A stretch of 64,000 nucleotides of DNA from Promethearchaeota archaeon (GTDB lineage Archaea > Asgardarchaeota > Lokiarchaeia > Sigyniarchaeales > SOKP01), in the NCBI GenBank assembly GCA_048941625.1, contig JBHLNK010000004.1, positions 1,094 to 65,093 on the forward strand, read 5' to 3'. Below the pieces are notes generated by a model that saw only the letters and a list, made by a program, of their open reading frames with translations, was not told where the DNA came from and did no database searches. A program made the translations under genes and the position numbers. Shown here one piece after another: positions 6 through 32,076 of the stretch. Numbering within the stretch: the stretch's first letter is position 1; each line of letters begins with the position of its first letter.

Positions 6-473
6 TTGAACGAGCAAATGCAAAATATGGTTAAAAGACGAATAATTGAAGTTCCAGAAATATCAAAAGAAGACTCTGTTATGCTATTGATCTTAACGGA
101 GGGTGGTAATCTTTTATTCTCAAAAAAATTCGTAGAAGACTTTTCTTTTGAAGAGAATATTATAGGAGGTTTTCTAACAACAGTAAATTATATAATTAGT
201 GAAGTATTTTCTGAAGGTCTTGATAGGGCTGTTTTTGGTCAATACACTCTTCTTATGATGCGTCTTAAACCATTTTTAGTATGTTATATCTTTAAAGGAT
301 ACTCCTATTTCGCTCATCGTAAGATTAAACAATTTATCGAATCTATTCAGAACGATAATCTGATTTGGCAATCTTTAGAAAACTTTTCCCAAATGAGTAA
401 ATTTGTTCAAGCAGAAAGTATTCCTTCACTTGAATCATTGATAACAAAAATCTTTATTGAGACACAAAATTAG
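6..473 (+). CDS. longin/roadblock-type (SNARE-like fold) small regulatory protein, a candidate MglB-like partner of the downstream GTPase. The frame is open to the window edge, so the 5' end may be incomplete.
   Basis: 155-aa ORF. The layout VMLLILTEGGNLLFSKKF ... IIGGFLTTVNYIISEVF ... YTLLMMRLKPFLVCYIFKG ... IKQFIESI mirrors the beta-alpha-beta pattern of sigma-adaptin/longin and roadblock domains. It lies directly upstream of an MglA-like GTPase. Confidence 0.5.
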   Translation: MNEQMQNMVKRRIIEVPEISKEDSVMLLILTEGGNLLFSKKFVEDFSFEENIIGGFLTTVNYIISEVFSEGLDRAVFGQYTLLMMRLKPFLVCYIFKGYSYFAHRKIKQFIESIQNDNLIWQSLENFSQMSKFVQAESIPSLESLITKIFIETQN

Positions 474-520
474 TAAAAGTTTACTTTTCAATCATTCCAA
501 TTCACAAAAGTTTTATTTTA

Positions 521-658
521 AACATTGTTGGAGTTGGAGCAGTAGGCAAAACATCCTTAATTAAGAAACTCACATTAGGAATATCCAAAAATGATGATTA
601 TCTTGTTTCTAATTTAACAGAAAAAATCAGATTCATATTTTTACATTGTTTAATATAA
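521..658 (+). pseudogene. remnant of a small-GTPase N-terminus (P-loop only), with no canonical start codon
   Basis: Manual translation gives NIVGVGAVGKTSLIKKLTLGISKNDDYLVSNLTEKIRFIFLHCLI*. It contains a perfect G1/Walker A (GxxxxGKT/S) but stops after about 45 codons, and there is no ATG/GTG/TTG in frame upstream. Confidence 0.35.
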
Positions 659-721
659 AAAACATTGATTTTTTAAACCTAGTTTAGAAATTGCATTTAT
701 AAGAATAGAGATGATTAAAGA

Positions 722-1315
722 GTGATTATTGACCATATTGAAAAAACAATTAGTATAAAAATAGTATATTTCGGTCCTGCTTTATCGGGTAAAACAACTT
801 CTATAAAGGCATTATTCTCCCATTTTGGTAAAGAAGAAGAGATTTATAGTATTGAAAGTACTGTAAATAGAACTTTGTTTTTTGATTATGGAACAATAAC
901 ATTTCAAAATCAAGAATGGGGTCTTAAAATCCATATCTACACAACTACAGGCCAGGATTTCTATTTTGTTACTCGTCCTATAACGTTAAGGGCAGTAGAT
1001 GGGATCATTTTTGTGATAGATTCTCAAGAAGAAGCTTATGAAAGAAATTTGATCTCTTGGAATGAATTAATCTCCTACTTTCGTGAAGAATTAGAGGATC
1101 TCCCAATAATTATAGCTTTTAATAAACAAGACAAGGATGATAAATTTGATTCAATAGATTTCTTAAGAGAAATAAGATACTCAAGATATAATAATGTGGA
1201 TACGAAATTTACTAGCGCAAAAAAAGGAGAAGGAATTATAGAATGTTTTGAAGATATAATAAGATTAGTATTAAAAAAATACTATGAAAATAAATTAGTG
1301 ACTAAAGTAAATTAA
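722..1315 (+). CDS. MglA-like small Ras-superfamily GTPase
   Basis: KIVYFGPALSGKTTS (G1), TTTGQDFY (MglA-type T-x-x-GQ G3), FNKQD (G4), TSAKKG (G5). Colinear with the MglA pattern KIVYYGPGLxGKTTN...TVPGQ...NKxD. Confidence 0.8.
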   Translation: MIIDHIEKTISIKIVYFGPALSGKTTSIKALFSHFGKEEEIYSIESTVNRTLFFDYGTITFQNQEWGLKIHIYTTTGQDFYFVTRPITLRAVDGIIFVIDSQEEAYERNLISWNELISYFREELEDLPIIIAFNKQDKDDKFDSIDFLREIRYSRYNNVDTKFTSAKKGEGIIECFEDIIRLVLKKYYENKLVTKVN

Positions 1316-1336
1316 ATTTTCAGTAGATAAAGAAAT

Positions 1337-2557
1337 TTAAAAGAAGCTTGCTTCTGATACCGCTGATTGAATTCTAATATTTTGTTGGCTATTATCTTCT
1401 AAAATAGAAATTAATGCAGTAATGTTTTGTTTTGTTTCATAAATGATCTCTTTTTCTTCCCCTTTTTTCCACAGATTAAATCCAGTTAAGCTTGGAGCAG
1501 TTTCGAATAAACCTTCTTGTAAACCAGTAACTTTAACTGTAATTCCGTGAAGATCTTCTTTTGAAATATTCTTTATTTTTAGGATATATCTATCAATATC
1601 CGAATCAATAGATACTACTTTATAGATTTTTTGAAATCTTGAAATTCCATCAAAAACTGAGGATGCTCCTGCTGTTCCCTCAGAAAAAAGATCTACACCC
1701 ACTTTCTTTTCAGAAATTGGACCTGTTGTTATGGTTATTGGAACTTCAAACTTAATTGGTTCTAATCCAAACTCTGGTTTCTTTTTTCCAAGAACTAGCA
1801 GACTCCATTTAGTGTATGCGCCATATTTAAAACCAAATTGCTCTTTCTCTGAAGGTGACCATAGGAAATTATGACTTGGTTCAGCTACTTCAGGAACTTT
1901 AAGAAGCAAAAAATCCTTATCAAAATTCTGAGTCCGAACATCACCAGCTATAGCAGGTGGTAATTCTTCGACTTTACGGCAATTATCACCATATGCCTCA
2001 CAATAACATATCAGATTTGAATCTTGAAGTAATCTTATTTCCAATTGTTTGAGTTCATCTGAACTATACCCAATTTTTATTGTTTCTCCTGGTTTGAACA
2101 CATCTTTAGTTAAAAGAATATTTAATCCAGCTATTGAAAATGATATTGGTTTTGGAACTTTTTCCTGAAGTCCAGAATTTCTTGCTTTAATTTCTATATC
2201 ACGCGTCTTATTAATGACTAAATCATCTTCAGGATTTACCGGATTTGGCTTTCTCAACACTAATTTTAAAATATAATTTAGATTTCTGTTTTTAATAGTA
2301 GGTACAACATTATTCTTAATTAAAAGAGATTTTTCACGTATGTATTCTCCCGGTTCAAAATTACCTTTTGAAAATATTTCTTCTTTTGAGATATGAAGTT
2401 CTTTTAAACACGGTGGGTTAGTAATTAGACTAATCCCACTCCAAAAAATTTCAGTATCTTCTTCAAAATTAAATTTAGTGCTTACTTTTACCTTATCTCC
2501 GACATAAACGGAAGCGTCAGTTGAATCACTAATCTCTAACTTTAACAAGTTTAACAA
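1337..2557 (-). CDS. arrestin/Spo0M-like two-lobe beta-sandwich protein with an extra C-terminal beta-sandwich-like module
   Basis: 406-aa ORF. It has two repeats of the arrestin-type signature (VYVGDKVKVSTKFNF..., then VFKPGETIKIGYSS...LEIRLLQ). The C-terminal roughly 95 aa resemble the tails of the ORFs at 10035-11525 and 51325-52368. Confidence 0.4.
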   Translation of the reverse strand: MLNLLKLEISDSTDASVYVGDKVKVSTKFNFEEDTEIFWSGISLITNPPCLKELHISKEEIFSKGNFEPGEYIREKSLLIKNNVVPTIKNRNLNYILKLVLRKPNPVNPEDDLVINKTRDIEIKARNSGLQEKVPKPISFSIAGLNILLTKDVFKPGETIKIGYSSDELKQLEIRLLQDSNLICYCEAYGDNCRKVEELPPAIAGDVRTQNFDKDFLLLKVPEVAEPSHNFLWSPSEKEQFGFKYGAYTKWSLLVLGKKKPEFGLEPIKFEVPITITTGPISEKKVGVDLFSEGTAGASSVFDGISRFQKIYKVVSIDSDIDRYILKIKNISKEDLHGITVKVTGLQEGLFETAPSLTGFNLWKKGEEKEIIYETKQNITALISILEDNSQQNIRIQSAVSEASFF

Positions 2558-2768
2558 AAATATTATTAATTTTTTCAGTTCATTAATTCTATTAATATTA
2601 AGATTAAAGATTAAATAAAAATTTTTTATGTTACTATTTTTCCTTTTTTATTTATTTATTTATGTAAGATTATCCACTTTTTTGTTAAAACAATGAACCT
2701 AAAAAGTATATATCATGCATCATTTTCAAATATAACGATATAAAGAAAAAATAGAGTATTTTTGAACA

Positions 2769-3485
2769 ATGAAGGGTAAACTTGATGATAAAACTAAAGT
2801 GATACTCTTTGATTTGGATAATACCTTAATAGAAGTAGATTTAGATAAATTTATTCCACAGTATTTAAACTTATTGTCTCAAAGTGTAGCCCATATTATT
2901 CCATCTAAGAAATTTATAGCTAAAATTCTAACTGCTTCAAAAGCAATAGAAGAGAATGATGGTTCCAAATCTAATGAGGAGGTTTATGCTGAGAAATTTT
3001 TCCCATTGGAAGGATATGACCGTGAGGAAATTAAACCATTTTTTGATGAATTCTATGAAAAAGATTTTTTAAAATTAAAAAAATACACTAAAAAAAAGCC
3101 TGAAGCTAAAGCTGTAGTTCAAAAAGCTTTTGACGAAGGATATGATGTTGTTATTGCCACAACTCCGATGCTACCTGCAACTGCTATCGAACAAAGATTA
3201 GAATGGGCGGGAGTGGCTGAATTCCCTTACCTTTTAATAACCTCAATAGAAAACTGTCATGCAACTAAATCTCTAACTCATTTGCTTTATTACGATCAAA
3301 TATTAGATAAAATTGGGTATCCTGCAAAATCCTGTTTAATGGTTGGTGATGATGATAAGGATTTAGTAGCTAAACGATTAGGAATGCTTACATATTTAAT
3401 TGAACAGAATGGAAGAGTATTGAGTCCAGAAATCCCAGAGCCGACATTTAAAGGCTCCTTAAAAGATTTGTTAAAGTTACTTTAG
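2769..3485 (+). CDS. HAD-superfamily hydrolase
   Basis: ILFDLDNTL (motif I, DxD) and MVGDDDKDL (motif IV). Confidence 0.7.
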   Translation: MKGKLDDKTKVILFDLDNTLIEVDLDKFIPQYLNLLSQSVAHIIPSKKFIAKILTASKAIEENDGSKSNEEVYAEKFFPLEGYDREEIKPFFDEFYEKDFLKLKKYTKKKPEAKAVVQKAFDEGYDVVIATTPMLPATAIEQRLEWAGVAEFPYLLITSIENCHATKSLTHLLYYDQILDKIGYPAKSCLMVGDDDKDLVAKRLGMLTYLIEQNGRVLSPEIPEPTFKGSLKDLLKLL

Positions 3486-3490
3486 TATTA

Positions 3491-3667
3491 TTATTTTTCC
3501 CTTTTATGCCATGTGTAGGCTAATTTACTCATATTATAAATGGGTGGAGGAGGTTCTTCTATTAATTTCTTACCAAGACACTTCGCACATAGATATACCT
3601 CTCTATTAACATCAGTAAAGAAGCACATGTACAAGTTTTCCTCATGAAGGCAGCCTTCGCACCTCAT
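3491..3667 (-). CDS. small (58 aa) CxxC...CxxC zinc-ribbon protein, absent from the ORF track
   Basis: Manual reverse-strand translation gives MRCEGCLHEENLYMCFFTDVNREVYLCAKCLGKKLIEEPPPPIYNMSKLAYTWHKREK*. It has an ATG start, a TAA stop and two CxxC pairs. Confidence 0.45.
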   Translation of the reverse strand: MRCEGCLHEENLYMCFFTDVNREVYLCAKCLGKKLIEEPPPPIYNMSKLAYTWHKREK

Positions 3668-3863
3668 TATTCATCTTAAAATCTTCGACAAAGAAATAAA
3701 AAACTTATTATTAAAATCGCAATAAATTTTTGAATTTATTTCCTTATTTTTTAAATATTTTGAGTTAAAGTTAAATAAAAATTTTTTTTTAGATTTTATT
3801 AGAAGTATATTTTTACTGATATAGTATAATTTTTTTTAAGGTTGAGGTTTTCTGAACGACGCA

Positions 3864-4700
3864 GTGTTTTTTAGTCTTATTGCTATGTTTATTATACGTA
3901 TTATTGGTTTAGGTACCTCTTTCGAATTTTTTTATGATTTGAAAAAAAATTTTTATTTTTATTTTATTTTAGGATGGATGTTTGCAATTATAGGGAATCT
4001 ATTAGCACTATTAATAGATTTGATAGACAATACTTCTCTTTTAGAGACAATCTTAGTATTTAATGCTCTCTTTATTTCTCTGAGTATGTTTTTGTTAATG
4101 ATCGGTATGTTGTCATATTATCTCAAAATTAATTTTCGATATCTAGTTTTAAGTTGCATAGGTATAATAATTATAGCTTTAATGTTGTTTATTTTTATTG
4201 ATTACACGATTTCAATCAATTTTTCTGTTTTAATTATGAATTTGGTGATAATAATTGCTTTTTTAATACCGTTCTTTAAATATAAAAAATTCCGGAAAAT
4301 TATTGGAAAAAGTATTAGATGGTATTATGTAGGTTTTGTAACTCTTCTTGGTTTTTTACCGATTTCTTTATTTATTTCTTCACAAGGTTATGGTTATGGA
4401 CTCTATTTTACTGATGATATTCTATTTATAATCTTAAACTATACAATTGGTATTATAAATCATCTACTATTGATTGTTTTACTTATTCATTTAGAATTTA
4501 CAATTTCTAATAGGCAACAAAACCAATTGAAAGATAAATATTCCCATAATTTAGGAAATATAATGCAAGTAATTTATAGCTCTGCTGATTTATTTAAGAG
4601 AATTATCAAAACAGAGAATATTGACAATGATAAATTGGATTTAATAGAAAAAAAGTGTAAAGAAGCCTCAAAAATAATTAAAGAGATTAGAAATTTATAA
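3864..4700 (+). CDS. polytopic membrane protein with a C-terminal HisKA-like helix but no ATPase domain
   Basis: About 6-7 hydrophobic helices, then QLKDKYSHNLGNIMQVIYSSADLF (an H-box-like dimerisation/phospho-acceptor segment). The ORF ends without N/G boxes. It precedes a receiver and a complete histidine kinase. Confidence 0.5.
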   Translation: MFFSLIAMFIIRIIGLGTSFEFFYDLKKNFYFYFILGWMFAIIGNLLALLIDLIDNTSLLETILVFNALFISLSMFLLMIGMLSYYLKINFRYLVLSCIGIIIIALMLFIFIDYTISINFSVLIMNLVIIIAFLIPFFKYKKFRKIIGKSIRWYYVGFVTLLGFLPISLFISSQGYGYGLYFTDDILFIILNYTIGIINHLLLIVLLIHLEFTISNRQQNQLKDKYSHNLGNIMQVIYSSADLFKRIIKTENIDNDKLDLIEKKCKEASKIIKEIRNL

Positions 4701-4723: not shown

Positions 4724-5086
4724 ATGTCTAATATTTTAATTGTTGATGATGATCTAGATATTGTAGATCTTTTCGAGCAATTCTTAAAACTAAAAGGGCA
4801 TAAGATTATAGCAAAAGCTTACGATGGTGAACAAGCAATTGAAGTTTTTAAGAAATCGCAAAACCACATAGATATAATTATAATGGATCATCGGATGCCT
4901 TTGAAAAATGGAGTTGAAACTACAGAGGAAATTCTTAACATAAATCCTAAAGTTAAAATTATTTTTGTGAGTGCGGACTATACTATTCGAGACAGGGCAA
5001 TTAAAGCTGGAGCCGTTGATTTTTTAGAAAAACCAATTGATTTCGACACTTTATTTAGATTGATTGAAAAATATATACCTTCCTAA
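4724..5086 (+). CDS. single-domain response regulator (CheY-like receiver)
   Basis: ILIVDDDLD, IIIMDHRMP (phospho-acceptor Asp) and IIFVSAD motifs. A GGAGAG Shine-Dalgarno-like sequence lies upstream. Confidence 0.85.
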   Translation: MSNILIVDDDLDIVDLFEQFLKLKGHKIIAKAYDGEQAIEVFKKSQNHIDIIIMDHRMPLKNGVETTEEILNINPKVKIIFVSADYTIRDRAIKAGAVDFLEKPIDFDTLFRLIEKYIPS

Positions 5087-5211
5087 AGGAAATTGTTAGT
5101 CTTTTACATTCATGGGTAGAATTTTGCTTTGATCTTATGGTGAACTGATAATTTTTAAAGTTTAAAACTAAGATATAATTAATATTCGTTTTAATTAAAC
5201 AACGATCTTAA

Positions 5212-6282
5212 ATGAAGAGATTAAATAATTTATATTATTCCTCATTAATTCTTTTCATTATAACTTCTCTCTTTTTATATCTCCAACTATTTTTGGTAAA
5301 CGCTGTTCAGTTCAGGATATTTTTAATAGAACTTGGTTATGGCTTAATGTTATTTATCCCCATTTTTCTAATTAGTTGGTTTTTAAGGAAAACTAAGTTT
5401 CAGTTTGATTTAATTATGATAATGTCAGGCATTTGTGCTTATGGTGCATATCTAGCGGATCTAATGACAAAATCTACTCCTAATTGGGGACTTTTAAGAA
5501 TAAATATTCCATTTATTATAGGATTCATCATTGTTGGATTGCTTAACATCGCTTCTTTGCTATATTTCACCATTATTTTAACAAAAAAAAGAGTAATTAC
5601 ACCACTACATCATGCAATTAAAGAAAAAAATAAAATAGAAAAGATACTTCTTCAACAAAAACAAGAATTAAGCAATTTCGCTCATATGATGGTTCATGAT
5701 TTGCGTAGTAATTTAACTTCAATAAAGGGATTCGCTGAATTAATGTCAAGGGAGTCCAATAAAGAAGACGGTTTACTTATGCTGGATAAAATCAATCAAA
5801 TCCAGGATTTGCTTGAATCTTCATTAAAATTAGCAGATTCTGGTAAAATCATAGATAAAAGAGAAAATGTTGATTTACATCATCTTACTCGGGAATTAGT
5901 TGATTCAATCATCCCAAAACCCATAAAAATACAATTAGATGGATTACCTAATATTTCTGGAGATAAACATCGGTTATTCCAGGTAATGAAAAATCTTTTA
6001 GAAAATGCTGTAATACACGGTAAACCAAATGAGATAAGAATATATTCTCAATATCAAAATTCCTCACTATTACTTTGTATAGAAAATGATGGCAATCCTA
6101 TATCAAATGAATCTTTAAACGATTTTAATAAGCAGACTTTTTCTTTAGAAATTAATAGAAAAGGATTAGGATTAAAAATAGTAAAAAGGATTATTGAAGC
6201 ACATGGATGGAATATTACTGCTAAAGATAAACCTTTGACGACTTTCGTAATTAAGATACCTAAGGATGATGTCATCAATTAG
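5212..6282 (+). CDS. membrane sensor histidine kinase (HisKA + HATPase_c)
   Basis: H-box FAHMMVHDLRSNLTSIKGF, N-box NLLENAVIHG and G-box KGLGLKIVKRIIEAHGW, with N-terminal transmembrane helices. Confidence 0.85.
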   Translation: MKRLNNLYYSSLILFIITSLFLYLQLFLVNAVQFRIFLIELGYGLMLFIPIFLISWFLRKTKFQFDLIMIMSGICAYGAYLADLMTKSTPNWGLLRINIPFIIGFIIVGLLNIASLLYFTIILTKKRVITPLHHAIKEKNKIEKILLQQKQELSNFAHMMVHDLRSNLTSIKGFAELMSRESNKEDGLLMLDKINQIQDLLESSLKLADSGKIIDKRENVDLHHLTRELVDSIIPKPIKIQLDGLPNISGDKHRLFQVMKNLLENAVIHGKPNEIRIYSQYQNSSLLLCIENDGNPISNESLNDFNKQTFSLEINRKGLGLKIVKRIIEAHGWNITAKDKPLTTFVIKIPKDDVIN

Positions 6283-7384: not shown

Positions 7385-7930
7385 TCAAAGAGTAATTTGT
7401 AAAACAAATACTCCAATCAAACTAACGCTTAGGATAAATGAATACTTTAAATTGGTCTTACCATCATATTGTTTTTTAATTTTTTCAGTTATTTTTGCTC
7501 TTTTATATATCTTACAGGTATTTACTGCTACAGGTGGATATTTCATATATGATTGAATAGAATTATCATAAGGAATTGAACTTTGTGATGTAGTTGCTGA
7601 TTTTGAATAAAAAGTATAAATATATAGTATTTCTGGCAAAAGAAGGGCTCCCAATAACGGATAAAAATTCAAAAGATAGAATAAAAAGAATAAACCTCCA
7701 ACCATTAGAGCAAAACAATAATAAATATAAAGTGGATTATTCTGAATGAACTTCAAAATCAAAATAATAACTGATATGCTAGATAAAAAAATACCAATAG
7801 TAGAAACAAATATATTAGTTGATAAAATTAGCAATGGTAATATGATAATTAATAAATTCATTAAAGCTAAACTAATATCAATATAATTTACAAATCCTTT
7901 CCTGAACTGATACTCTAAATTATCACTCAT
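7385..7930 (-). CDS. hypothetical multi-pass membrane protein
   Basis: 181-aa ORF dominated by hydrophobic helices. No recognisable motif. Confidence 0.4.
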   Translation of the reverse strand: MSDNLEYQFRKGFVNYIDISLALMNLLIIILPLLILSTNIFVSTIGIFLSSISVIILILKFIQNNPLYIYYCFALMVGGLFFLFYLLNFYPLLGALLLPEILYIYTFYSKSATTSQSSIPYDNSIQSYMKYPPVAVNTCKIYKRAKITEKIKKQYDGKTNLKYSFILSVSLIGVFVLQITL

Positions 7931-9050: not shown

Positions 9051-9959
9051 TTAATCCGTATGCGCAGATATAATTAAATCTGCAAATAACTTCATATCAT
9101 TCAATAACATATTTAATTTATCCTGTGAATCTCTATCCAGTTCTCCAGACTTCATAACTAGAACAGATATGATATATTTGAATATGTGGAGCTCAACTTC
9201 TTTTCCATCTCCATCTCTACCCCAAAATTTCGAGGAATCTGACATAAATATGTTTTCTCTGACAGTATTGCAAGCATTAATAAAATCTCTTAGATCTCCT
9301 CTCAAAGTTAAACCACTACTTACACCTTGGACATTATGAACAATTACATTTCCTGAAATATCAGCAATAATCACTTTTGCCTTAATCTCATCAAGTTGCT
9401 TTTCCGCTTTTTCAACATGTTTCTTTAATTCAGCATACTCAGATATTAAAATATCTCTAAAAACTTTAGCTAACTTATCCTGTTCATAAATGCTGGTTAG
9501 CATGTAATCAAAATCATAGTCTTTGAATAAATCTAAGAAAATCTCCTTTGCATTCTTTACATTAGTATCAAGAAGCTCTTTCTGATAATCCTCAGTGTCA
9601 TATTTATGTAAGAATAAGAATATCTTAGGTTTTTCATTGTTTTTACGATAAAGATCTAATAAACTAATAAAATAATCTTTAGCTTCATTGAAAGTATTAG
9701 GTTCATGAAGCGAAACAATAGGGATCAGAATATCAGTACCACGAAAGATTTCAGGTTTTTCCATATATTCTTTCCTAAATTCTTCTTGCCCGCCAAAATC
9801 AAATATGCCCACTTGCAAACCCAGAAATGGGTGTCTTCTTGTTTCGTAAAGTATTGTCGGTGCTAATCCTTTAGTGTCTTCTGGTCTTTTAGCGGCAAAA
9901 GCTACAGAATAAACACTTGTTTTCCCACAACCGCTTAATCCGACTAAACTAATTTTCAT
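9051..9959 (-). CDS. Rag/Gtr-like small GTPase with C-terminal roadblock domain
   Basis: [15 protein letters not shown] (G1), [10 protein letters not shown] (G3), IFLFLHKYD (the HKxD G4 variant typical of Rag/Gtr) and TSIYEQ (G5). The C-terminal roughly 130 aa ([18 protein letters not shown]...[11 protein letters not shown]) have a roadblock-like layout. Length and order parallel RagA/Gtr1. Confidence 0.7.
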   Translation of the reverse strand: [302 protein letters not shown]

Positions 9960-10034
9960 TTTTGACTTTCCTTTTTTTGATGGTTTTTATAATAATTTAT
10001 TTCATTTAACTTTTTTAATAAAATATTTAGTTTT

Positions 10035-11525
10035 TTATTCTTTTGGTGTGATTTTTAGTGTTCTGGAAAAAATTTTGCCAAATGCCTCAGTTGATGCTTC
10101 AACTAATACATTTGCATTGATAGGCGTTCCATCCGGTATATCCAATGGATATCCAATTTCAATTGTTTCGTATGGAAATAATTCTCTAATAGTTGTTATC
10201 CATGGATTTTTTTCAAAAAGTTCTTCCACAGTGACAATCCGTATTTTTAAATCTTCTAAAACATATCCTATGGTATTAGTTAATGATACATTCAGAATTT
10301 TTTCATCCTCATTTAAATCCTTACTTACACTTAAAAATTTTCTTGCTCCAAGAGTGGGCGTTACTTCAGCTTGTTCTACTTCTGGTTTAGTTTCAATACG
10401 AGGTTCTTCTGCTTCCTCAGAATCTCGTACAATAAAGACTTTTCTTTTTTGTATAGTATATTGCGAAACTTTTTTCAGTTTTGCCAAAAATAACACAGCA
10501 TTTAAATTAATGGCATTAAAAGGTTCTATTTTCAGATAACCTTTTTCAGCAGCATCCTCCATAATTTCAGTTCCTATACCACTCCTAGCAAAAACAGTGT
10601 TTTTATTTGCACCAGAACCTACGCTGCCTACGCTAATGTCTGCATTTTCTGCTGTTAAATCAGTGCAAAAATTACAACTCGATGACTTAAATTTATCCAA
10701 TTGTCTAATGGTATATGATTTCACTGGATCTCCATTAGAATCATAATATAAATGGAATTTTCCTTTATTTATATCCATTTTCTGAACTTTTGACAAATCA
10801 ATCCCTTCATTTTCAAAAAATGGATAGATAGCTTCGGGTGAGAAAGAATCCATGCAAAAGAGTCCAATCTTAAGAACATTACATCGCATAAAATACTTTA
10901 ACATACCTGCTGGACTGTCGAACATTTTAGCAACAGCATCAATATTACATGGAGTTCCAACAAATGCAATTGAACGAAAATCTTGCCTAACAGCATCCAT
11001 TAAAGCTTCAACTGTTTGAGAGTGACTATAAATCGAGCCGGAGGATTTGATTGCATCATCTTTATTTGTGATAATTTGTGCAACAGGATACCAGGGTTTT
11101 TCCGGATTCTTCATTGTAACTACAGCAGCATCAATTAAATGCTCATCAAAAAGGTAGCAAAGCAAGCTTGTAACTGTTCCGCCATCTTGTCCACCTATTA
11201 CTTCAGGTATATTAGTATTAGCAACATAACCAGTTTTGAATTCACCCATAAGTTGATATGGATCAGTAATTGTCCGTGGGCACTGATTATAACAAATACC
11301 ACATCCTGTACATTTTCCAATTAATTTTGGTTGCCCTGCCAAATCATCCCATTCTAAAACGGGACAAACAGCAGCACAAGTACCACATTCAGTACAAATT
11401 CCAGTCCGTATAATCTCTTTCATCAACATACCAAAAGAATCCTTTTTTCCCTCCAATTTCTTCTGAATATATTCAAAAGAATATTCGTATGGAGTTTCGG
11501 TTTTATTAGCTTTATCTTCAGTCAT
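10035..11525 (-). CDS. FrhB/FdhB-family iron-sulfur flavoprotein with N-terminal 2x[4Fe-4S] ferredoxin motifs and a roughly 100-aa C-terminal beta-sandwich-like extension
   Basis: CTECGTCAAVCP and CTGCGICYNQCP, then GGQDGGTVTSLL, FVGTPCNIDA, GLFCMDSF and CNFCTDLTAENADISVGSVG, which are FrhB_FdhB N/C signatures. Confidence 0.75.
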   Translation of the reverse strand: MTEDKANKTETPYEYSFEYIQKKLEGKKDSFGMLMKEIIRTGICTECGTCAAVCPVLEWDDLAGQPKLIGKCTGCGICYNQCPRTITDPYQLMGEFKTGYVANTNIPEVIGGQDGGTVTSLLCYLFDEHLIDAAVVTMKNPEKPWYPVAQIITNKDDAIKSSGSIYSHSQTVEALMDAVRQDFRSIAFVGTPCNIDAVAKMFDSPAGMLKYFMRCNVLKIGLFCMDSFSPEAIYPFFENEGIDLSKVQKMDINKGKFHLYYDSNGDPVKSYTIRQLDKFKSSSCNFCTDLTAENADISVGSVGSGANKNTVFARSGIGTEIMEDAAEKGYLKIEPFNAINLNAVLFLAKLKKVSQYTIQKRKVFIVRDSEEAEEPRIETKPEVEQAEVTPTLGARKFLSVSKDLNEDEKILNVSLTNTIGYVLEDLKIRIVTVEELFEKNPWITTIRELFPYETIEIGYPLDIPDGTPINANVLVEASTEAFGKIFSRTLKITPKE

Positions 11526-11683: not shown

Positions 11684-13282
11684 TTAAGAATTTTCTAATT
11701 CAAGTCTTTCTTCTATTCTTTTGATAGCATTTGATGCGTGAATTCGTACTACTCTATGGAAATCATTTACTCTGTTGATTAATGCGCTAAGAGCTAGCTC
11801 TCCACCGAAATTTTCTAAAAGTTTAATTAAACTTAACTTTACTTTATGGTTTTCACTTTCCTTCGCTTTTAAAAAATCAGTAAGAATTGCTAGGTATTTA
11901 TTCAATATTCTTGAGATTTCTTGTTTACTATCTTTAGTTTTGTACCAATTATTTTGGAATATGTTATAGATTGCGTCGATGGTCACTTTTTTTATAAGCC
12001 AGTAAGTATTTTCATTTTCTATTATTTTTTGTAAATCCCTCAAAGGTGCAACACTTCCAATTTTACCTAAAGCAATAATAGTGTTCTTTTTAACATCTAA
12101 ATTTCTAATTACTAAAAGATCACACAGCGGTTTCACAAATTCCTCTTTAGCGATTTCTCCTAGAAGAAAAGCAACACTCTCTCTAACTGTATCATTTTCT
12201 TTTTTTAAAGCATTATATAAATATTCATAAGAAGAACTTTGATTATTTTGATAAATCCGTTTTATAGAGTCGAGTATGTACAGTTTCATATCCAAATCAG
12301 TATATTCAAAACTTACATCTTCAATATCTAAAATATCTAGTAATTCTGGAACCGCTGATAAATCACCAATCTCTCCTAACGCTTCTATTGCAGCAATAGT
12401 TACTTCTTTGTATATATTGTCTAAGTTCGATATTAATAAATCTATAGCATCATTGAGTTTTAATTTCCCACATAATACGACTGCATTTTTTTTTACGATA
12501 AAATCATCAAGAAGCAATAATTTTAAAAGATCTTTCCTAACCTCATTTTCCATTAATTTTAATATTGAGACAACTGAATCCAATAAACTTAAATCTTCTT
12601 CTTTTAAGATTTGTGTGACAACTTCTAAAATGGTATCTTTATTTTGAATAATTTCTGTTAAGATTTCTGGATATTTTGCTTTGAGAAAGCTTACATCCTC
12701 AAATGAAACGTTGACACTTGAAATTTCGTATCCAATTAACTTTATTATTTCTGCTTTATGATTATTTGATAGTTTTCTATTTTTTAAAGCTCCTAATAGG
12801 AGCGGAATAAGTTTTTCTAAATTTAGACTTAATAATTGAATTGAAACATATTCTCTAATTGAATTAATAGAATTATCTAATTCATTGATAAACAACCTGA
12901 TTTCAGTTTCTTCAAATCGAGTTTTGTATATTGCTTTTAAAGCAGAAAGTTTAACATTATAATCGACAGGCTTTTGTTCTAATATCCAATTTAAAGGTTT
13001 TAAAGATTTTTCAATATTTAACCGACCTAGAGCTTTTGCAGCTTCACATTTTATCTCAATTTTATCATCTGAGATCAAAAGGTTTTCAAATGTCTTATAA
13101 CATTCATTTTTCAGCTGTATTGAATTATTGCTAATCATACCTAAATATTTAATTGCATCTCTCCGTTTAATATCATCCTTCTCTTTTTCTATTATTTGAG
13201 TTAGCATATTTGCTGAATTTTTTAAACCAAATTCCGTACTTCTCTGATATATTTCGCGAGGATGAAGTTTTACTTTAAGCAT
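11684..13282 (-). CDS. HEAT-repeat (PBS-lyase HEAT-like) protein
   Basis: Repeated A..ALG.IG...A...L units, e.g. AAKALGRLNIEKSLKPL, AIEALGEIGDLSAVPELLDIL and IIALGKIGSVAPLRDL. Confidence 0.7.
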   Translation of the reverse strand: MLKVKLHPREIYQRSTEFGLKNSANMLTQIIEKEKDDIKRRDAIKYLGMISNNSIQLKNECYKTFENLLISDDKIEIKCEAAKALGRLNIEKSLKPLNWILEQKPVDYNVKLSALKAIYKTRFEETEIRLFINELDNSINSIREYVSIQLLSLNLEKLIPLLLGALKNRKLSNNHKAEIIKLIGYEISSVNVSFEDVSFLKAKYPEILTEIIQNKDTILEVVTQILKEEDLSLLDSVVSILKLMENEVRKDLLKLLLLDDFIVKKNAVVLCGKLKLNDAIDLLISNLDNIYKEVTIAAIEALGEIGDLSAVPELLDILDIEDVSFEYTDLDMKLYILDSIKRIYQNNQSSSYEYLYNALKKENDTVRESVAFLLGEIAKEEFVKPLCDLLVIRNLDVKKNTIIALGKIGSVAPLRDLQKIIENENTYWLIKKVTIDAIYNIFQNNWYKTKDSKQEISRILNKYLAILTDFLKAKESENHKVKLSLIKLLENFGGELALSALINRVNDFHRVVRIHASNAIKRIEERLELENS

Positions 13283-13771: not shown

Positions 13772-14689
13772 ATGAAGTTTGGTTATTGTGTAAGAAGTCC
13801 TTCTACTCGTATATATTCTGAAATTAGAGACTTAACATTAAGAATTGAAAAGTTAAATTTTGATTCTATTCATGTTACCGACCATTTACTAGGTTTTGAT
13901 GAAACTCAAGAAAAAAAAGAAACGTTTTTAGAGTGTATGATACTATTGGGAGCGTTAGCAGTAGAAACAAATAAAATAAAATTGGGGCAAATTGTATTAT
14001 GCAACTCTTTTCGTAATCCTGCTTATTTAGCAAAAATGATATTGACTTTGGATCACATTTCTAATGGTCGAGTTTTAATGTGGTTAGGAGCAGGTTGGTA
14101 TGAGGAAGAATATAAGGCATATGGCTACGCATTTCCTTCTCCTAAAAGAAGAGTCGATGAGTTGGAGGAATCATTGACTATATATAAGAAGATATTTACG
14201 GAAGATGAAACTAACTTTGACGGAAGATTTTGGAAACTTGAAAAACATCGGAACTTTCCTAAGTCAGTACAGAAACCTTACCCACAATTAGTTATAGGGA
14301 CAAATGGTAAGAGGATGATTGACATTGCATGCCGAGAAGCAGATGGAATAAATTTGGCTTCATTGGAACTTTCGCAACAAAAAAAAAGAATGGAGAATAT
14401 TTCACTAATTAAAGAAAAACTAAGAAAGTACAACCGTGATCGTTCTAAGTTTGAGATCTCTCTTTTCACAGGTGTTACAATAGTCAGCATTCAAGAAACA
14501 GTTGAAAGGATAAGAAAAGAAAGGAATATTTTAAAATCTGATATGAAATATCAATTCATAGGAACTCCTGAAGAGATTAAAGAAAAAATAAAAGAAGCTG
14601 AAAATTTAGGTATCAATAAAATGGTTATAGTAATAGAAAGTCCTGATATTGAGGATCCTATTCACACTTTTTGTAGAGAAATAATGTGA
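13772..14689 (+). CDS. luciferase-like monooxygenase (LLM) family oxidoreductase, probably F420-dependent
   Basis: SIHVTDHL, LGAGWYEEEYKAYGYAFPSPKRRVDELEESL and FDGRFW are the typical LLM/F420-dependent oxidoreductase pattern. Confidence 0.65.
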   Translation: MKFGYCVRSPSTRIYSEIRDLTLRIEKLNFDSIHVTDHLLGFDETQEKKETFLECMILLGALAVETNKIKLGQIVLCNSFRNPAYLAKMILTLDHISNGRVLMWLGAGWYEEEYKAYGYAFPSPKRRVDELEESLTIYKKIFTEDETNFDGRFWKLEKHRNFPKSVQKPYPQLVIGTNGKRMIDIACREADGINLASLELSQQKKRMENISLIKEKLRKYNRDRSKFEISLFTGVTIVSIQETVERIRKERNILKSDMKYQFIGTPEEIKEKIKEAENLGINKMVIVIESPDIEDPIHTFCREIM

Positions 14690-22726: not shown

Positions 22727-24670
22727 ATGAGAAATCCTGAAAATCATCGGATTGGATACTATGCTTGTCAATGAGGTGTAAATATAAGAACTAAAGTAGA
22801 CTGTGATGAGTTAGTAGATTATGTGAGTAAAAACTTTGATGATGTTGTTATTGCTAAGAAAAATGCTTTCCTATGAACTGATAATGCTCAGAATGAAATA
22901 ATTGAAGATATAAAGGAGAAAAACTTAAACAGAATAGTGGCATCAGCTTGAACTCCACGTACACATGAAGTAATTTACCGAGGAACTATTGCTAAAACAG
23001 ATTTGAATCCATACTATTTTCAAATGGTAAATGTACGTGAACATTGTTCATGGTGTACAGATACTAAGGAAGAAGCTACAAAGAAAGCAAAATCTTTAGT
23101 GAAAAGTGGAATTGAAAGGGCTAAAAGACTTGAACCCGTCCCAATTAGAACGGTTCCAGTCACTAAAGCTACATTAGTTGTTGGTGGTGGGATAGGTGGG
23201 ATGAACGCAGCTCTCGATCTTGCAAATCAAGGTATCAAGGTATATTTAGTTGACCAAAAGACAACGATTGGAGGACGAATGTCTCAATTAGACCGAACAT
23301 TTCCTACCGACGATTGTGCAATATGAATTTGCGGACCTAAAATGTTGGAAGTCAATAGAAATGAGAACATTGAGTTAATAACTTATAGTGAAGTAAAGAA
23401 AATAGAGGGATTTGTTGGAAACTATAAAGTAACAATTCAAAAAAAACCACGATTTACTACAAAAGAATGTAATGGATGTGGAGCCTGTGCCGAAGTATGT
23501 CCTGTTTATATATCAAATTATTTCGATGAATACTTAGGTGCACGGAAAGCAATAGACATTCCATTTGGTCAAGCAGTACCATTTTTATATGATATCGATA
23601 GAAAAGCATGTATTGAGTGTTTTTCATGTGTAGATGCCTGTGAACTTGATGCGATTGATTTTAGTCAATTACCTACTGATATTGAAGTTGAAGTCGGTAC
23701 AATTATTATTGCAACTGGTTGGGATATATATGAACCCTTTGGAGAATATGGATATGGAGAATTTGAAAATGTCATAACACAAGTCCAATTAGAGAGAATA
23801 CTTGCACCTAATGGTCCACTTGAGGGGCATGTTCACAGAATATCAGATAATAAAAAACCTAAAGAAATTGTATTTATACAGTGTGTAGGAAGTCGAGAAA
23901 CTGAACGAACATATTGTAGTGGTGTCTGTTGTATGCTTGCTTTAAAAAATGGAAGGTTATTACTGGAAGAGTTTCCTGATGCGAATATAACAATATGTTA
24001 CATTGATATAAGAACTCCTGAAAAAGGATTTGAGGAGTATTATGAACGCGCAAAAGAAGCAGGGATAAAGATGATTCGGGGAAAAGTAGGTGAGATCTCT
24101 GAAGATCCTGAAACTAAGAATGTAAAAGTCAGAGTTTATTCATCTTTAACAGATAAAATTGTACTAATTGATGCCGATTTAGTAGTCTTATCTACAGCAG
24201 CACTTCCTTCAGCAGGAACTCAGCAAATTGTAGATGTTTTAAATCTTGATACTAATACATATGGATTTCTTACTGAATCGCATTTTGGTTTATTACCACA
24301 AGAAACAAAGTCAAAAGGTATTTTTATAGCTGGTTTTGCTCAAGGACCAAAGAATATTTCATATTCGGTCTCTCAAGCAAGAGCAGCTGCTAGTAAAGTA
24401 GCTGAATTAACAGCTCCAGGACAAATCGATATTGAATTGATTACTGCTGAAGTAAATAGTGAATTTTGTATTTCTTGTAGACGTTGTGAAAAGGAATGTC
24501 CAAAGAATGCAATAAGGATTGAAAAAGATATTGGAGCATTTATTGACGAAATAAATTGTGATGGCTGTGGAATTTGTGCAACCTGTTGTCCTACACAGGC
24601 AATCGATATCAGATATTATAGAGACCATCAATTATTTGCTGAAATTGATGGTTTATTAGGAGGTGATTAA
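22727..24670 (+). CDS. hdrA: heterodisulfide reductase subunit A of canonical size (647 codons), with four in-frame UGA codons read as selenocysteine
   Basis: One frame is continuous from ATG 22727 to TAA 24668-24670. The only interruptions are TGA at 22772, 22874, 22949 and 23324. Each aligns to a conserved Cys of the in-window paralogues: CHCG->CQUG, YTCSAD->FLUTDN, ASCTPRTHE->SAUTPRTHE, DCAICILAPK->DCAIUICGPK. The rest carries GGGIGG FAD motifs, four CxxCxxCxxxC ferredoxin motifs and CVGSR...YCSGVCC. Confidence 0.85.
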
Positions 24671-24676
24671 AGAGAC

Positions 24677-25138
24677 ATGGAAAATACCTTTAAAATAATT
24701 GTCTTTGCTTGTTTAAAATGAGGTTATAGTGCTGCTGATTTAGCAGGAGTTTCACGATTGAAATATACATCAGCAGTAAAAATAATCAAAGTGAAATGTA
24801 CTGGTAGAGTTGATCTTAAACATATACTTTATTGCATTCGTTCGGGAGCTGATGGTGTGATGATCGTAGGTTGACGTCCTAACGAATGTCAATTCAAAAA
24901 TGGTAATTTTACAGCAGATAGACATGTGGAATTAGCAAATAGAATTTTAGCATCGAGAGGTTTCGGAGATCAGAGAATAAATATGTATTGGTTAAGTGGA
25001 GCAGAGTCAGAAAAATTTGTAAAAAGTGTAGAAGATGCATTAGAAAAAGTAAAAAATTCTGGACCAAATCCGCTTAAATTAGTAAAAAAAGAAGCTAATG
25101 TCGAAAAAAAACTAGTCATAACTACCCCTGCAGAATGA
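24677..25138 (+). CDS. vhuD: MvhD/VhuD-type subunit (hydrogenase delta-subunit family) with two in-frame UGA codons read as selenocysteine
   Basis: ATG 24677 follows a GGAGGTGA Shine-Dalgarno-like sequence. TGA at 24719 and 24872 align to Cys of the MvhD paralogues: CCNWCSYAGADLAG->ACLKUGYSAADLAG and TGCHIGDCHY->VGURPNECQF. The frame ends at TGA 25136, and the next in-frame stop is TAA 25145-25147. Confidence 0.85.
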
Positions 25139-25184
25139 CTCTTATAATAAAATTATAGTTATAAGATGACTAACCTTGCAAGGG
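25126..25184 (+). promoter_or_regulatory. candidate SECIS element (AUGA_AA_GA, eukaryote-like kink-turn layout) overlapping the vhuD 3' end
   Basis: Hand fold. Helix I pairs 25126-25133 (CCCUGCAG) with 25176-25184 (UUGCAAGGG, A25180 bulged). The core is A25135-U-G-A25138 opposite U25167-G-A25169. Helix II pairs 25140-25147 with 25159-25166 (8 bp). The apical loop UAAAAUUAUAG has an A-run on its 5' side. Confidence 0.55.
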
Positions 25185-25254
25185 AAGGGGTTTTCAAATA
25201 GTATTCAATTTAAAATAAGAATTTTAGTAAAATTTAATCCAAAAGGATGGAAAT

Positions 25255-26781
25255 ATGGTTCAAATTTCAAATAATGTAAATTTCAATAGTATATCTCCAA
25301 AAAATTTAATGGATGCAACTTATCAGGCAGTTGAAAATTTTCAGATTAGAGCCTTTTTCGAAGCAAAAGAAGAAATTTTAAAAACTGGAAAGTATAACGA
25401 AGGTGAATTTTACGATATATTAGATGCTCTAATTAATGCAGAAACAGAACGGAAATTAATATTAGAATCATTAAAAGGTAAAAAACCATCATTTTTAGAG
25501 GAAATTGTTAAAATTGTAAAAGAATTTCCAATAGAAAATGTTATCCGTGATATTATTTATCTTAAAGAACAAGGTTTTGTTGAAGAACTTATTGAAATAA
25601 AAACTAAAACAATTATAAAGAAAATAAAAGGCGAAGAGAAAGAAGTTGAAGAAAAAGAATATTATTATAGATACCAAGTCAAAGATCTGCCTGATAACTT
25701 CGTAGAACATTTTTTTGAACCAGTTTCTATTGTGTTTGATTCTGAAGTCTGCTGTCAATGTGGTTGGTGTTCATCAATTTGCCCCGTCAACGCTATAACA
25801 GTTACAGCAGACACTTTGGAGATAGATGATGAAACTTGTATGAAATGCGGTTTATGTTTTTCAGTTTGTCCAAGATCATTTTCAATTGAACAAGCAGGTA
25901 AGACTATAAATAAGCTTGATAAAAATTTAAAATTCTCAGAAAAAATAAATGGTTATATCAATACTTATTCTGCGAGTACTACAAAGGATGATATTAAAAA
26001 AGTAAGACAAGATGGCGGGATAGTAACCTCCTTGCTTGAATACTTACTTAAAAATAAAATGGTTGATGCAATTGTAGCAGTAAAACATTCGAAGGATTTA
26101 TGGAAACCTGAACCAGTTATAGTAGAAGATGTAAAAGATTTATACAAGACAAGTGGTACAAAATACGCCAATGCCTCAACTTTAAGTATTTTAGATAAAA
26201 CAAAAAAGTATGAAAGTATTGCAGTGGTGGGCGTTCCTTGTATGATGAATGCTTTAGAGAAAGGTACAATGTTACCGAGTGGACTACCCTTTTTCAAAAA
26301 CATTAAGTATCGAATAGGGCTTTTTTGTATGGAATCTTTTCCTTATACTGGTGTTCTTAGCTTAATTAATGAAAAATTTCAAAAAGATTTTAATGAAATT
26401 AAAAAAATGGATATAAGTGGAGGTAAATTTATCATATACTTAGAATCAGGTGAAGATTTAAATGTACCTTTAAATGAAGTTAAATCCTATGCACGTCATA
26501 ATTGCCATTATTGTGAAGACTTAACTGCTGATTATGCAGATATTTCTGTAGGATCAATAGGGTCTCCCAGTGGTTGGTCTACTGTAATCACGCGAAATGA
26601 AAAAGGTGAAAAGCTTTACAACGGAGTGATTAAAGCAGGTTTGATCGAATCAAAAAGCTTAGATGAAGTTAAACCTGGACAACCTTTATTAGAGAGGATT
26701 GCAGGTAGTAAAAGGAAAAATTGTAAACCAATCGAATTAAAAAAAGAACAAGAAAGGAGTGGCAACCATAACTGTAACTAA
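25255..26781 (+). CDS. FrhB/FdhB-family iron-sulfur flavoprotein with a roughly 150-aa N-terminal extension (winged-helix-like) and 2x[4Fe-4S] motifs
   Basis: CCQCGWCSSICP and CMKCGLCFSVCP, then VRQDGGIVTSLL, VVGVPCMMNAL, GLFCMESF and CHYCEDLTADYADISVGSIG. Confidence 0.75.
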   Translation: MVQISNNVNFNSISPKNLMDATYQAVENFQIRAFFEAKEEILKTGKYNEGEFYDILDALINAETERKLILESLKGKKPSFLEEIVKIVKEFPIENVIRDIIYLKEQGFVEELIEIKTKTIIKKIKGEEKEVEEKEYYYRYQVKDLPDNFVEHFFEPVSIVFDSEVCCQCGWCSSICPVNAITVTADTLEIDDETCMKCGLCFSVCPRSFSIEQAGKTINKLDKNLKFSEKINGYINTYSASTTKDDIKKVRQDGGIVTSLLEYLLKNKMVDAIVAVKHSKDLWKPEPVIVEDVKDLYKTSGTKYANASTLSILDKTKKYESIAVVGVPCMMNALEKGTMLPSGLPFFKNIKYRIGLFCMESFPYTGVLSLINEKFQKDFNEIKKMDISGGKFIIYLESGEDLNVPLNEVKSYARHNCHYCEDLTADYADISVGSIGSPSGWSTVITRNEKGEKLYNGVIKAGLIESKSLDEVKPGQPLLERIAGSKRKNCKPIELKKEQERSGNHNCN

Positions 26782-28018: not shown

Positions 28019-28034
28019 TGATTGAGGAGAGCAA

Positions 28035-31076: not shown

Positions 31077-31094
31077 TTTAAAAGGTGAAAATTT

Positions 31095-31526
31095 ATGTCT
31101 AAATCAAAAAAGAAAATAAGCAAAAAGGAGTTTCACCCTAATATATTGTGTTTTTGTTGCAATTGGTGTAGTTATGCAGGAGCAGATTTAGCGGGAGTTT
31201 CCCGATTTCAATATCCCTCCACAATCAGAATTGTGCGAGTAATGTGTTCTGGTAGAGTAGATCCTGCCTTCATTCTAGAAGCATTTAAAGATGGTATCGA
31301 CGGAGTAATTGTAACAGGATGTCACATAGGTGACTGTCATTATTTGAAAGGAAATGAGTTTGCTAGAGACAGGTTTGAAAATTTTCATAAAATTTTACAT
31401 ATTTTTAACCTTGATAAGAGATTTAGACTTGAATGGGTTAGTGCATCTGAAGGAAAACGATTTGCTGAAGTCATTGCAGAATTCACAAATCAAATTAAAG
31501 AACTGGGTCCACTAAGACCGAATTAG
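31095..31526 (+). CDS. mvhD: MvhD-type subunit (methyl-viologen-reducing hydrogenase delta subunit family), all-Cys version
   Basis: ILCFCCNWCSYAGADLAGVSRFQYP, RVMCSGRVDP and TGCHIGDCHY. Confidence 0.85.
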   Translation: MSKSKKKISKKEFHPNILCFCCNWCSYAGADLAGVSRFQYPSTIRIVRVMCSGRVDPAFILEAFKDGIDGVIVTGCHIGDCHYLKGNEFARDRFENFHKILHIFNLDKRFRLEWVSASEGKRFAEVIAEFTNQIKELGPLRPN

Positions 31527-31545
31527 AAATAATTTTTACATGAAT

Positions 31546-31559
31546 CAGCTGCTTTTTTT
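31546..31559 (+). terminator. possible operon terminator (palindrome plus T7 run)
   Basis: CAGCTG then C then TTTTTTT, starting 20 nt after the mvhD stop. Oligo-T tracts are the usual archaeal termination signal. Confidence 0.35.
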
Positions 31560-31996: not shown

Positions 31997-32004
31997 TTTA
32001 TATA
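31997..32004 (+). promoter_or_regulatory. candidate TATA box for the second hdrA cluster
   Basis: TTTATATA (the same octamer as at 22681) lies 73-80 nt upstream of ATG 32077. Weak evidence in AT-rich DNA. Confidence 0.2.
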
Positions 32005-32076
32005 ATTACATATCTTTATTTTTTAATCAACTAAGTTTTTGAGTAAATTATTCAATAACAATTTAAAATGGGTTAA

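Follow-up and report, generated by a model that had tools for sequence, protein, structure and literature searches.

The GTPase gene and its surroundings

We analyzed a stretch of 64,000 nucleotides from contig JBHLNK010000004.1 of a Promethearchaeota archaeon (assembly GCA_048941625.1, positions 1,094 to 65,093), referred to here as the window, which carries on its minus strand a gene for a RagA/Gtr1-like GTPase with a predicted C-terminal roadblock domain. The open reading frame (ORF, 9051..9959) starts with ATG, encodes 302 amino acid residues and ends with a stop codon at 9051-9053. Upstream on the same strand, beyond a spacer of 75 bp (9960..10034, minus strand), is a gene encoding an FrhB-like Fe-S flavoprotein of 496 residues (10035..11525), and further upstream a gene encoding a PBS-lyase-type HEAT-repeat protein of 532 residues (11684..13282). 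This order, HEAT-repeat gene, FrhB-like gene and GTPase gene, is the one described in a first-pass annotation, which a model had made from the DNA letters and ORF translations with no database searches. According to Pfam, the neighbors of the GTPase gene in the window encode the FrhB-like protein, the HEAT protein and an alpha/beta hydrolase.

Residues 1-175 of the GTPase (9435..9959, minus strand) are assigned to the G domain by Pfam, HMMER alignments and an AlphaFold2 (AF2) model, and residues 176-302 (9054..9434, minus strand) to a linker helix and a roadblock domain by AF2, Foldseek and profile comparison. The G domain contains a G1 motif GLSGCGKT (residues 7-14), a switch I threonine (T35), a G3 motif DFGGQ (residues 54-58), a G4 motif HKYD (residues 118-121) and a G5 motif TSI (residues 155-157). 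All four blocks that had been quoted as RagA-like are found in the protein, and the HMMER alignment to 6ces_A pairs each of them with the quoted RagA block. Lipid-modification signals left no trace, as the N-terminus reads MKISL, with no Gly2, and the C-terminus ends in ISAHTD, with neither a cysteine nor a CAAX motif.

A search with the Gtr1_RagA hidden Markov model (PF04670), which had been proposed as a check, gave the best of the Pfam matches, with 83.2 bits (E 2.5e-23, residues 2-190) against a curated cut-off of 22. The other small-GTPase models scored 33.3 bits (Arf) and 32.8 bits (Ras), and Gtr1_RagA leads Arf by 50 bits. Among PDB entries, the strongest HMMER sequence matches were Schizosaccharomyces pombe Gtr1 (2e-16), entry 8yl2, listed there as an Asgard 'GTP-binding protein' (5e-16), human RagA (8e-15) and yeast Gtr1 (2e-14), while RagC/Gtr2 (1e-6 to 1e-4) and Arl3/Arf (1e-4 to 1e-3) were weaker. 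Going by these scores, the similarity to Rag/Gtr proteins is far above chance. The HKxD form of the G4 motif, which had been put forward as a Rag hallmark, is present in the GTPase but does not discriminate, because nearly all Asgard family members have GLxxxGKT, DxGGQ and HKxD; the last motif occurs in almost every one of about 140 representatives of Asgard paralogues, including paralogues that score equally well against Arf/Arl3 and RagA.

Predicted fold and roadblock domain

The structure of the GTPase was modeled as a single chain with AF2 on an alignment with 91 homologues (alignment A1). The model has a mean predicted local distance difference test (pLDDT) of 90 and a predicted template modeling score (pTM) of 0.85, with pLDDT of 86-96 along the G domain and 80-94 along the C-terminal domain. 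Residues 1-175 adopt a Ras-like G domain, followed by helix 176-191, strands 195-200 and 204-208, helix 221-238, strands 243-248, 254-260 and 264-270, and helix 276-301. This a-b-b-a-b-b-b-a succession is the roadblock/LC7 order.

A Foldseek search of the PDB with this model gave Rag/Gtr proteins or the Lokiarchaeal protein LokiRagO as all of the best 31 matches, with alignments of some 300 columns or more in each case that cover both domains. The top match was LokiRagO (8yl2; E 1.6e-18, TM 0.66-0.69), followed by S. pombe Gtr1, yeast Gtr1 and human RagA (TM about 0.62), while structures containing only a G domain reached a query-normalized TM of just about 0.42-0.47. Profile searches gave a similar picture. 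The A1 family profile matched LokiRagO best (6e-82), human RagA with E 3e-46 over profile positions 4-285 and RagC with 1e-31 over positions 5-300, whereas the match to Arl3 (2.5e-24) covered the G domain only. Profile A3, restricted to the C-terminal halves, found the C-terminal domain of LokiRagO (E 2.5e-9), and its best non-Asgard match was residues 181-275 of S. pombe Gtr1, a marginal hit (E 0.0056) in the expected place.

The roadblock-like C-terminal half that the first-pass annotation had proposed is borne out by the confident AF2 model and by Foldseek alignments over both domains; its doubt, that this half might not fold as a roadblock, falls away because AF2 topology, Foldseek and profiles agree. 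As modeled, the GTPase has a C-terminal roadblock domain after the G domain.

Position relative to Rag, Arf and MglA

The GTPase and its orthologues (the orthogroup) were compared with Rag, Arf and MglA proteins by reverse phmmer searches and by a tree of 57 G domains, for which the reference sequences were checked against the PDB. In the reverse searches, eukaryotic RagA and Gtr1 placed the orthogroup among the best-ranked of 158 sequences. The median difference between the RagA and Arf1 scores was +39 bits for the orthogroup versus +6.5 bits for 136 Asgard paralogue representatives. The window GTPase scored 60-64 bits with RagA/Gtr1 (RagA 60), 32 bits with RagC and 23 bits with Arl3. Equal or greater RagA-likeness was reached only by P0252, P0196 and one Heimdall operon GTPase. 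In ten long paralogues, the Pfam model Gtr1_RagA was ahead of Arf by just 3-27 bits, versus 50 in the window GTPase. Measured in this way, the orthogroup resembles RagA/Gtr1 far more closely than most Asgard 'Rag-like' paralogues do.

The tree was generated by the neighbor-joining method with Kimura distances and bootstrapping, a crude method that leaves the deep nodes unresolved. The orthogroup was monophyletic (90% bootstrap), and in the best tree it was sister to a clade of RagA, Gtr1, RagC and three Asgard sequences, with a support of 44%. Arf fell inside the nearest super-clade of the orthogroup in 12% of the replicates, and Myxococcus xanthus MglA behaved as a long-branch outgroup.

Two other family assignments have to be weighed here. 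The GTPase could be a generic Asgard Arf-like protein whose roadblock tail is an independent fusion, as the name given by NCBI to its homologues, 'ADP-ribosylation factor-like protein', would suggest. HKxD also occurs in paralogues that score like Arl3, LokiRagO itself has 58 bits with Arl3 and 39 bits with RagA in the reverse searches, and eukaryotic Arf/Arl3 nest among Asgard paralogues in our tree, whose backbone is unresolved. Against these points stand the lead of the Gtr1_RagA model and of the RagA scores over Arf, the profile homology to RagA and RagC that runs on through the C-terminal domain, and the low bootstrap frequency of Arf next to the orthogroup. The protein shows no N-terminal extension, its G4 motif is HKYD instead of NKxD, and with the P-loop beginning at residue 7 it has neither an amphipathic helix at the N-terminus nor Gly2. 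In a published phylogeny, too, the Asgard 'Arf-like' group lies close to Rag and not within Arf (PMC11914678). Membership of Arf/Arl was rejected, and an Arf-like origin with a separately acquired tail seems to us improbable.

The second assignment would see in the protein a fusion of MglA/MglB type, the roadblock acting as an intramolecular GTPase-activating protein or regulator of the G domain, with a role in cell polarity. A small Ras-like GTPase combined with a roadblock fold follows the logic of MglA-MglB, and MglA-like GTPases have been reported in the Asgard archaeon MK-D1 (PMC10933270). MglA and MglB are two polypeptides with other G-domain signatures, whereas here the roadblock is fused. 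Furthermore, MglA was absent among the 60 listed PDB sequence matches and the best 50 structural matches, M. xanthus MglA is an outgroup in the tree, and the domain order and full-length superposition fit Rag/Gtr proteins, whose roadblock dimerizes and does not touch the nucleotide pocket. MglA membership was rejected, and we consider a fused polarity module very improbable.

The identity with Rag/Gtr proposed in the first-pass annotation is supported by the Gtr1_RagA model, the AF2 fold, the full-length structure match and the two-domain profile match. We place the GTPase within the Asgard Rag-like radiation, as one of its RagA/Gtr1-like members.

Conservation of the orthogroup and the P-loop cysteine

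The GTPase lies within a very large Asgard family, with 874 matches in a search of 1.8 billion cluster representatives. Homologues at 81-97% identity occupy the top 120 clusters; after clustering at 50%, just two other full-length representatives remain (64 and 56% identity), and then come paralogues at about 27-37%. Sampling one genome per GTDB species gave 74 loci, 66 of them Loki-type and eight Hod/Heimdall, in which the identity of the GTPase orthologue is 63-98% and 42-46%, respectively. The Hod/Heimdall orthologues keep the same GLSGCGKT P-loop. The window DNA, with a G+C content of about 30%, is 77-82% identical to the 74 fetched genomes, none of which is the same species. A look-up for the exact sequence of the window GTPase gave no record; an orthologue at 97% identity is found in CP070831.1.

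Across 40 orthogroup members, residues K13, T14, D54, Q58, H118, K119, D121, T155 and S156 are invariant. The roadblock domain is conserved to the same degree as the G domain and contains an invariant patch (D..GNV..H / LR.D.R / CN..REN). Among five neighborhood genes, the GTPase gene has the lowest nonsynonymous divergence (dN) in nearly every comparison (0.03-0.14), followed by the FrhB-like gene (0.05-0.18), and the HEAT gene evolves three to five times faster than the GTPase gene; these values rank the genes by dN only, since synonymous sites are saturated (pS of at least 0.75) and dN/dS is not computable. As far as sequence comparison can tell, the orthogroup is tight and under very strong constraint.

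The P-loop contains a cysteine (Cys11, codon 9927-9929 on the minus strand) in 39 of the 40 orthogroup members, versus two of 137 paralogue representatives. Its position corresponds to that of RhoA Cys16, a redox-sensitive residue. By analogy, the occurrence of Cys11 alongside redox neighbor genes is suggestive.

Several loci of this sample (L002, L003, L009, L019, L023, L025, L043 and others, from JBHL* assemblies) have NCBI labels of Thor-, Odin-, Hermod- or Hodarchaeota. At these loci, the GTPase and the FrhB-like protein share 84-98% identity with their Promethearchaeota orthologues and the synteny is the same, and the organism labels of these metagenome-assembled genomes look unreliable.

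The FrhB-like protein and its pairing with the GTPase gene

According to Pfam and NCBIfam, the protein encoded upstream of the GTPase gene is an FrhB-like Fe-S flavoprotein. It shows two 4Fe-4S motifs (residues about 36-90), an FrhB_FdhB_N domain (101-175), an FrhB_FdhB_C domain (184-337), an acidic linker and a C-terminal extension (residues 385-496; 10038..10373, minus strand) that AF2 models as a seven-stranded beta-sandwich. An identification as FrhB or FpoF proper was ruled out under the NCBIfam equivalog cut-offs, as TIGR03289 (FrhB; cut-off 331) gave just 163 bits and FpoF (cut-off 475) 120, and no hydrogenase, Fpo or Hdr genes were found by Pfam among the window ORFs beside it. The 112 residues of the beta-sandwich were modeled with pLDDT 88 and pTM 0.79, show 19 invariant columns in 21 sequences and have no Pfam match. 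Foldseek gave weak matches to NPC2, RhoGDI, MD-1 and PDE-delta (E about 3e-4 to 1e-3, TM about 0.5, 9-14% identity). The likeness to RhoGDI and PDE-delta was considered as evidence of GTPase binding and dropped, and the domain is treated as a generic Ig-like sandwich.

The FrhB-like gene is the most conserved feature of the GTPase neighborhood. Of the 64 informative Loki-type species loci, 63 have it upstream in the same orientation: in the full set of 66, it immediately adjoins the GTPase gene in 59, four have an insertion in between, two are untestable and one does not have it. This last locus (L060, 96-2827) has a 536-residue LAGLIDADG-type endonuclease-like ORF upstream and a disrupted GTPase ORF, on a low-coverage contig. 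The downstream flank of the GTPase gene is more varied, with an alpha/beta hydrolase gene in 13 of 62 Loki-type loci, Tag in five and other genes in 44. Of 47 informative loci, 37 have the HEAT gene upstream in the same orientation, at distances that vary, and its association with the FrhB-like gene is loose.

Outside the Loki-type loci the arrangement changes. The Hod-type locus L068 has a full-length FrhB-like orthologue (42% identity over 493 residues, C-terminal extension included) tail-to-tail with the GTPase orthologue, and both proteins are about 42-43% identical to those of the window. Five other Hod/Heimdall loci show NuoE-, NuoF-, NuoG/Fdh- and GltD-like genes directly downstream of the GTPase orthologue on the same strand. 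Three different arrangements all set the GTPase gene beside genes for soluble Fe-S/flavin oxidoreductases. Nothing specific on FrhB was found in the Asgard literature and, as far as we could find, the conserved pairing of FrhB-like and GTPase genes has not been reported. The FrhB-like protein is a candidate functional partner of the GTPase.

The intergenic gap between the two genes has a median of 79 bp (45 loci). Within the spacer of the window lies an AT-rich element with the core TTAAATGAAAT (9999-10009, minus strand). Within the 140 bp upstream of the GTPase start, the exact 11-mer is present in 29 of the 66 loci, where it precedes the ATG by 50-68 nt; its background frequency is 0.019 per kb, and the window contains a single copy. 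The element is possibly a promoter of the GTPase gene's own, of B recognition element (BRE)/TATA type. A GGAA/GGAG-type ribosome-binding site is found about 8 nt ahead of the ATG, and the spacer also holds a T-run that could be the terminator of the FrhB-like gene.

The close association with an Fe-S/flavin protein would also fit a different role, in which the GTPase serves as a maturation or cofactor-insertion factor for its neighbor; the tight conserved adjacency and the orthogroup-specific P-loop cysteine are in line with this. However, all measured similarities are to signaling GTPases of Rag/Arf type, and the metallocenter GTPases HypB, UreG, CooC and MeaB belong to the SIMIBI/G3E class and are not Ras-like TRAFAC proteins with a roadblock. 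A maturation role is, in our view, highly unlikely.

Other genes in the window

The HEAT protein was assigned by Pfam (HEAT_2, E 3e-30; HEAT_PBS), and its PDB matches are generic alphaRep/PBS-HEAT repeat proteins only. A match to mTOR_dom (19 bits against a Pfam cut-off of 27.6) is non-significant and was rejected. Just past the HEAT gene, on the plus strand, is a gene of the luciferase-like monooxygenase family (13772-14689; Bac_luciferase, 151 bits in Pfam). On the downstream side of the GTPase gene, at a distance of about 3 kb, a response regulator and a histidine kinase are encoded as a pair (4724-6282, plus strand).

A second small GTPase of 197 residues is encoded about 8 kb from the Rag-like gene (722-1315, plus strand). 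It has no roadblock domain and is of generic Ras/Arf/Roc type (Ras 38.7, Arf 36.5 and Gtr1_RagA 28.8 bits).

The plus strand also carries a large cluster of redox genes (23342-40141), which includes a 4Fe-4S protein gene and a second FrhB paralogue (25255-26781) that does not have the beta-sandwich and stands beside HdrA-like, CCG-domain and MvhD genes. The cluster contains two genes for CCG-domain HdrD-like proteins, three for HdrA-like proteins of about 1,000 residues and two MvhD/FlpD genes (31095-31526 and 39701-40141), and it looks like duplicated Hdr/Mvh-type modules.

Rag-like genes at other Asgard loci

Six Hod/Heimdall loci (L066 and L068-L072) show a conserved minus-strand operon (about 150-4600), upstream of the GTPase orthologue at about 3.4 kb. 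The operon encodes two more Gtr1_RagA GTPases (334 residues, 118 bits; 310 residues, 110 bits), which are possibly a Gtr1/Gtr2-like pair, as well as a degenerate GTPase-like protein of 287 residues and a protein of 259 residues with no Pfam match. Between operon and orthologue are a Trp/Tyr-tRNA synthetase gene (6 of 8 loci) and a divergent gene for a transporter of the major facilitator superfamily (8 of 8). The most RagA-like Asgard representative found is P0252, with 82 bits against human RagA. It is encoded in a compact operon (L075, 4916-9251), flanked on one side by the gene for a 282-residue protein with no recorded Pfam match and on the other by that for an 814-residue protein, again with a Gtr1_RagA domain.

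Comparison with known systems

As the switch that senses amino acids, Rag GTPases act upstream of TORC1; to our knowledge, no TOR kinase is known in archaea. Eukaryotic RagA/B and Gtr1 share with the window GTPase the succession of G domain and roadblock in about 300 residues, the HKxD, DxxGQ and TSI motifs and the lack of a lipidation motif, and they are its best named sequence matches and superpose over the full length. The differences are an identity of only about 22-25% over the structural alignment, a P-loop cysteine in place of serine, the absence of RagC/Gtr2, Ragulator/EGO, GATOR or FLCN homologues near the window GTPase, and a context of redox enzymes instead of amino-acid signaling.

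Liu et al. (10.1101/2020.10.19.343400) call Rag-family GTPases 'abundant in Asgards', and 'Rag-like' GTPases of MK-D1 fused to roadblock and/or longin domains have been catalogued (Tran et al. 2024, PMC10933270). The latter authors modeled with AF2 a Gtr1/Gtr2-like heterodimer from one MK-D1 operon and described the function of these GTPases as unknown. They found GTPase genes generally outside operons with roadblock, longin or TRAPPC3 genes, and hypothesized membrane roles; the term FrhB is not used and 'operon' appears three times, for the Rag-like pair and the general statement only. The MK-D1 proteins are of the same class as the window GTPase, with predicted roadblock dimerization like that of Gtr1/Gtr2 (PMC10933270). 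For GTPase-roadblock architectures the same paper notes an insert in switch II, while switch II of the window GTPase is, if anything, two residues shorter than that of RagA.

The PDB contains LokiRagO (8yl2, homotetrameric, RagA-like and GTP-bound, released 2025-09-10) and LokiRagM (8zla and 9m28, monomeric), and no paper describing 8yl2, 8zla or 9m28, or LokiRagO/M, was found. LokiRagO comes from the same phylum, has the GTPase-roadblock architecture and is the top structural and profile match; however, it is another paralogue with about 20-22% identity, and it prefers Arl3 over RagA, whereas the window GTPase does the opposite. The GTPase-roadblock architecture is not new in archaea, because it has already been described and crystallized in Asgard archaea. 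What is new here is a distinct, unusually RagA-like orthogroup within a known, structurally solved class.

Proposed function

That the protein belongs to this family and behaves as a switch is the part of our interpretation that we hold with high confidence. Having a complete Ras-type G domain, the GTPase should bind and hydrolyze GTP and would cycle between GTP and GDP states. It would oligomerize via its roadblock domain, as Rags do and as LokiRagO may according to its PDB title; a homo-oligomer is plausible because that title describes LokiRagO as a homotetramer. The target of this nucleotide-controlled switch would be the FrhB-like Fe-S flavoprotein, possibly through its beta-sandwich. If this coupling holds, the switch would be tied to redox and electron-carrier metabolism and not to a TOR-type pathway. 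Taken as a whole, a RagA/Gtr1-like GTPase-roadblock switch with the FrhB-like flavoprotein as working partner or target is the best explanation of the data, and a probable one. Its second element taken separately, the functional coupling to the flavoprotein, is tentative and rather doubtful.

The strongest competitor accepts the same RagA-like GTPase-roadblock switch and regards the FrhB-like neighbor as mere inherited synteny, the GTPase acting elsewhere, for instance in the regulation of membranes or protrusions, a role put forward in general terms for Rab/Rag-like GTPases of Asgard archaea. Several points speak for it, most of which also weigh against the reading that we prefer. The two genes may be separately transcribed, given the conserved AT-rich, promoter-like element and the T-run in the spacer. 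The FrhB-like neighbor is missing at most Hod/Heimdall orthologues, five of the eight having other neighbors, and the pairing could partly be inherited synteny because all 66 Loki-type loci are from one archaeal class. In MK-D1, small GTPase genes as a rule do not share an operon with their regulators, and the roles hypothesized for them are at membranes (PMC10933270). Other points count against the preferred reading without speaking for synteny: the weak and generic matches of the beta-sandwich, the absence of any fusion of a Rag-like G domain to a redox domain in the ten long paralogues, and the bootstrap value of just 44% that joins the orthogroup to eukaryotic Rags in a tree whose backbone is unresolved. 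Finally, the second Rag paralogue and the Ragulator/longin partners that the first-pass annotation had suggested looking for did not turn up in the window: phmmer, run with the complete sequence and with each of its two domains, found no second Rag paralogue among 101 stop-to-stop ORFs of at least 70 residues, and Pfam found no roadblock or longin domain in ten of the eleven window ORFs of 100-200 residues (the ORF at 7385-7930 was left out).

Against inherited synteny, the pair is kept in nearly all informative Loki-type species while the downstream flank is mostly replaced and the HEAT gene drifts, it outlasts re-orientation in L068 at about 42-43% protein identity, and the alternative Hod/Heimdall neighbors are again soluble Fe-S/flavin oxidoreductases. 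On balance, we give synteny without function a chance not far below even.

A more specific version of the coupled switch can be considered, in which a Rag-type switch is wired to electron-carrier metabolism and the cellular redox or energy state is read out by a Rag-like GTPase. The contact would be made perhaps via the beta-sandwich and the invariant roadblock patch or the P-loop cysteine. We regard this version as unlikely.

If the neighborhood reflects synteny only, the GTPase is an ordinary member of a family that has already been described and crystallized. In either case, the orthogroup is among the few Asgard groups that are clearly RagA/Gtr1-like and do not fall between Rag and Arf. 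It is also an exception to the rule, stressed in the literature, that Asgard small-GTPase genes rarely adjoin informative partners, and the FrhB-like gene offers a specific candidate for the partner of such a GTPase in archaea, one that can be put to the test. Should the link prove real, it would point to a monitoring of core energy metabolism by archaeal Rag-type switches, apart from any TOR pathway, and, if the electron-carrier version holds, the protein would be a relative of the nutrient-sensing eukaryotic Rags that senses metabolism without TOR.

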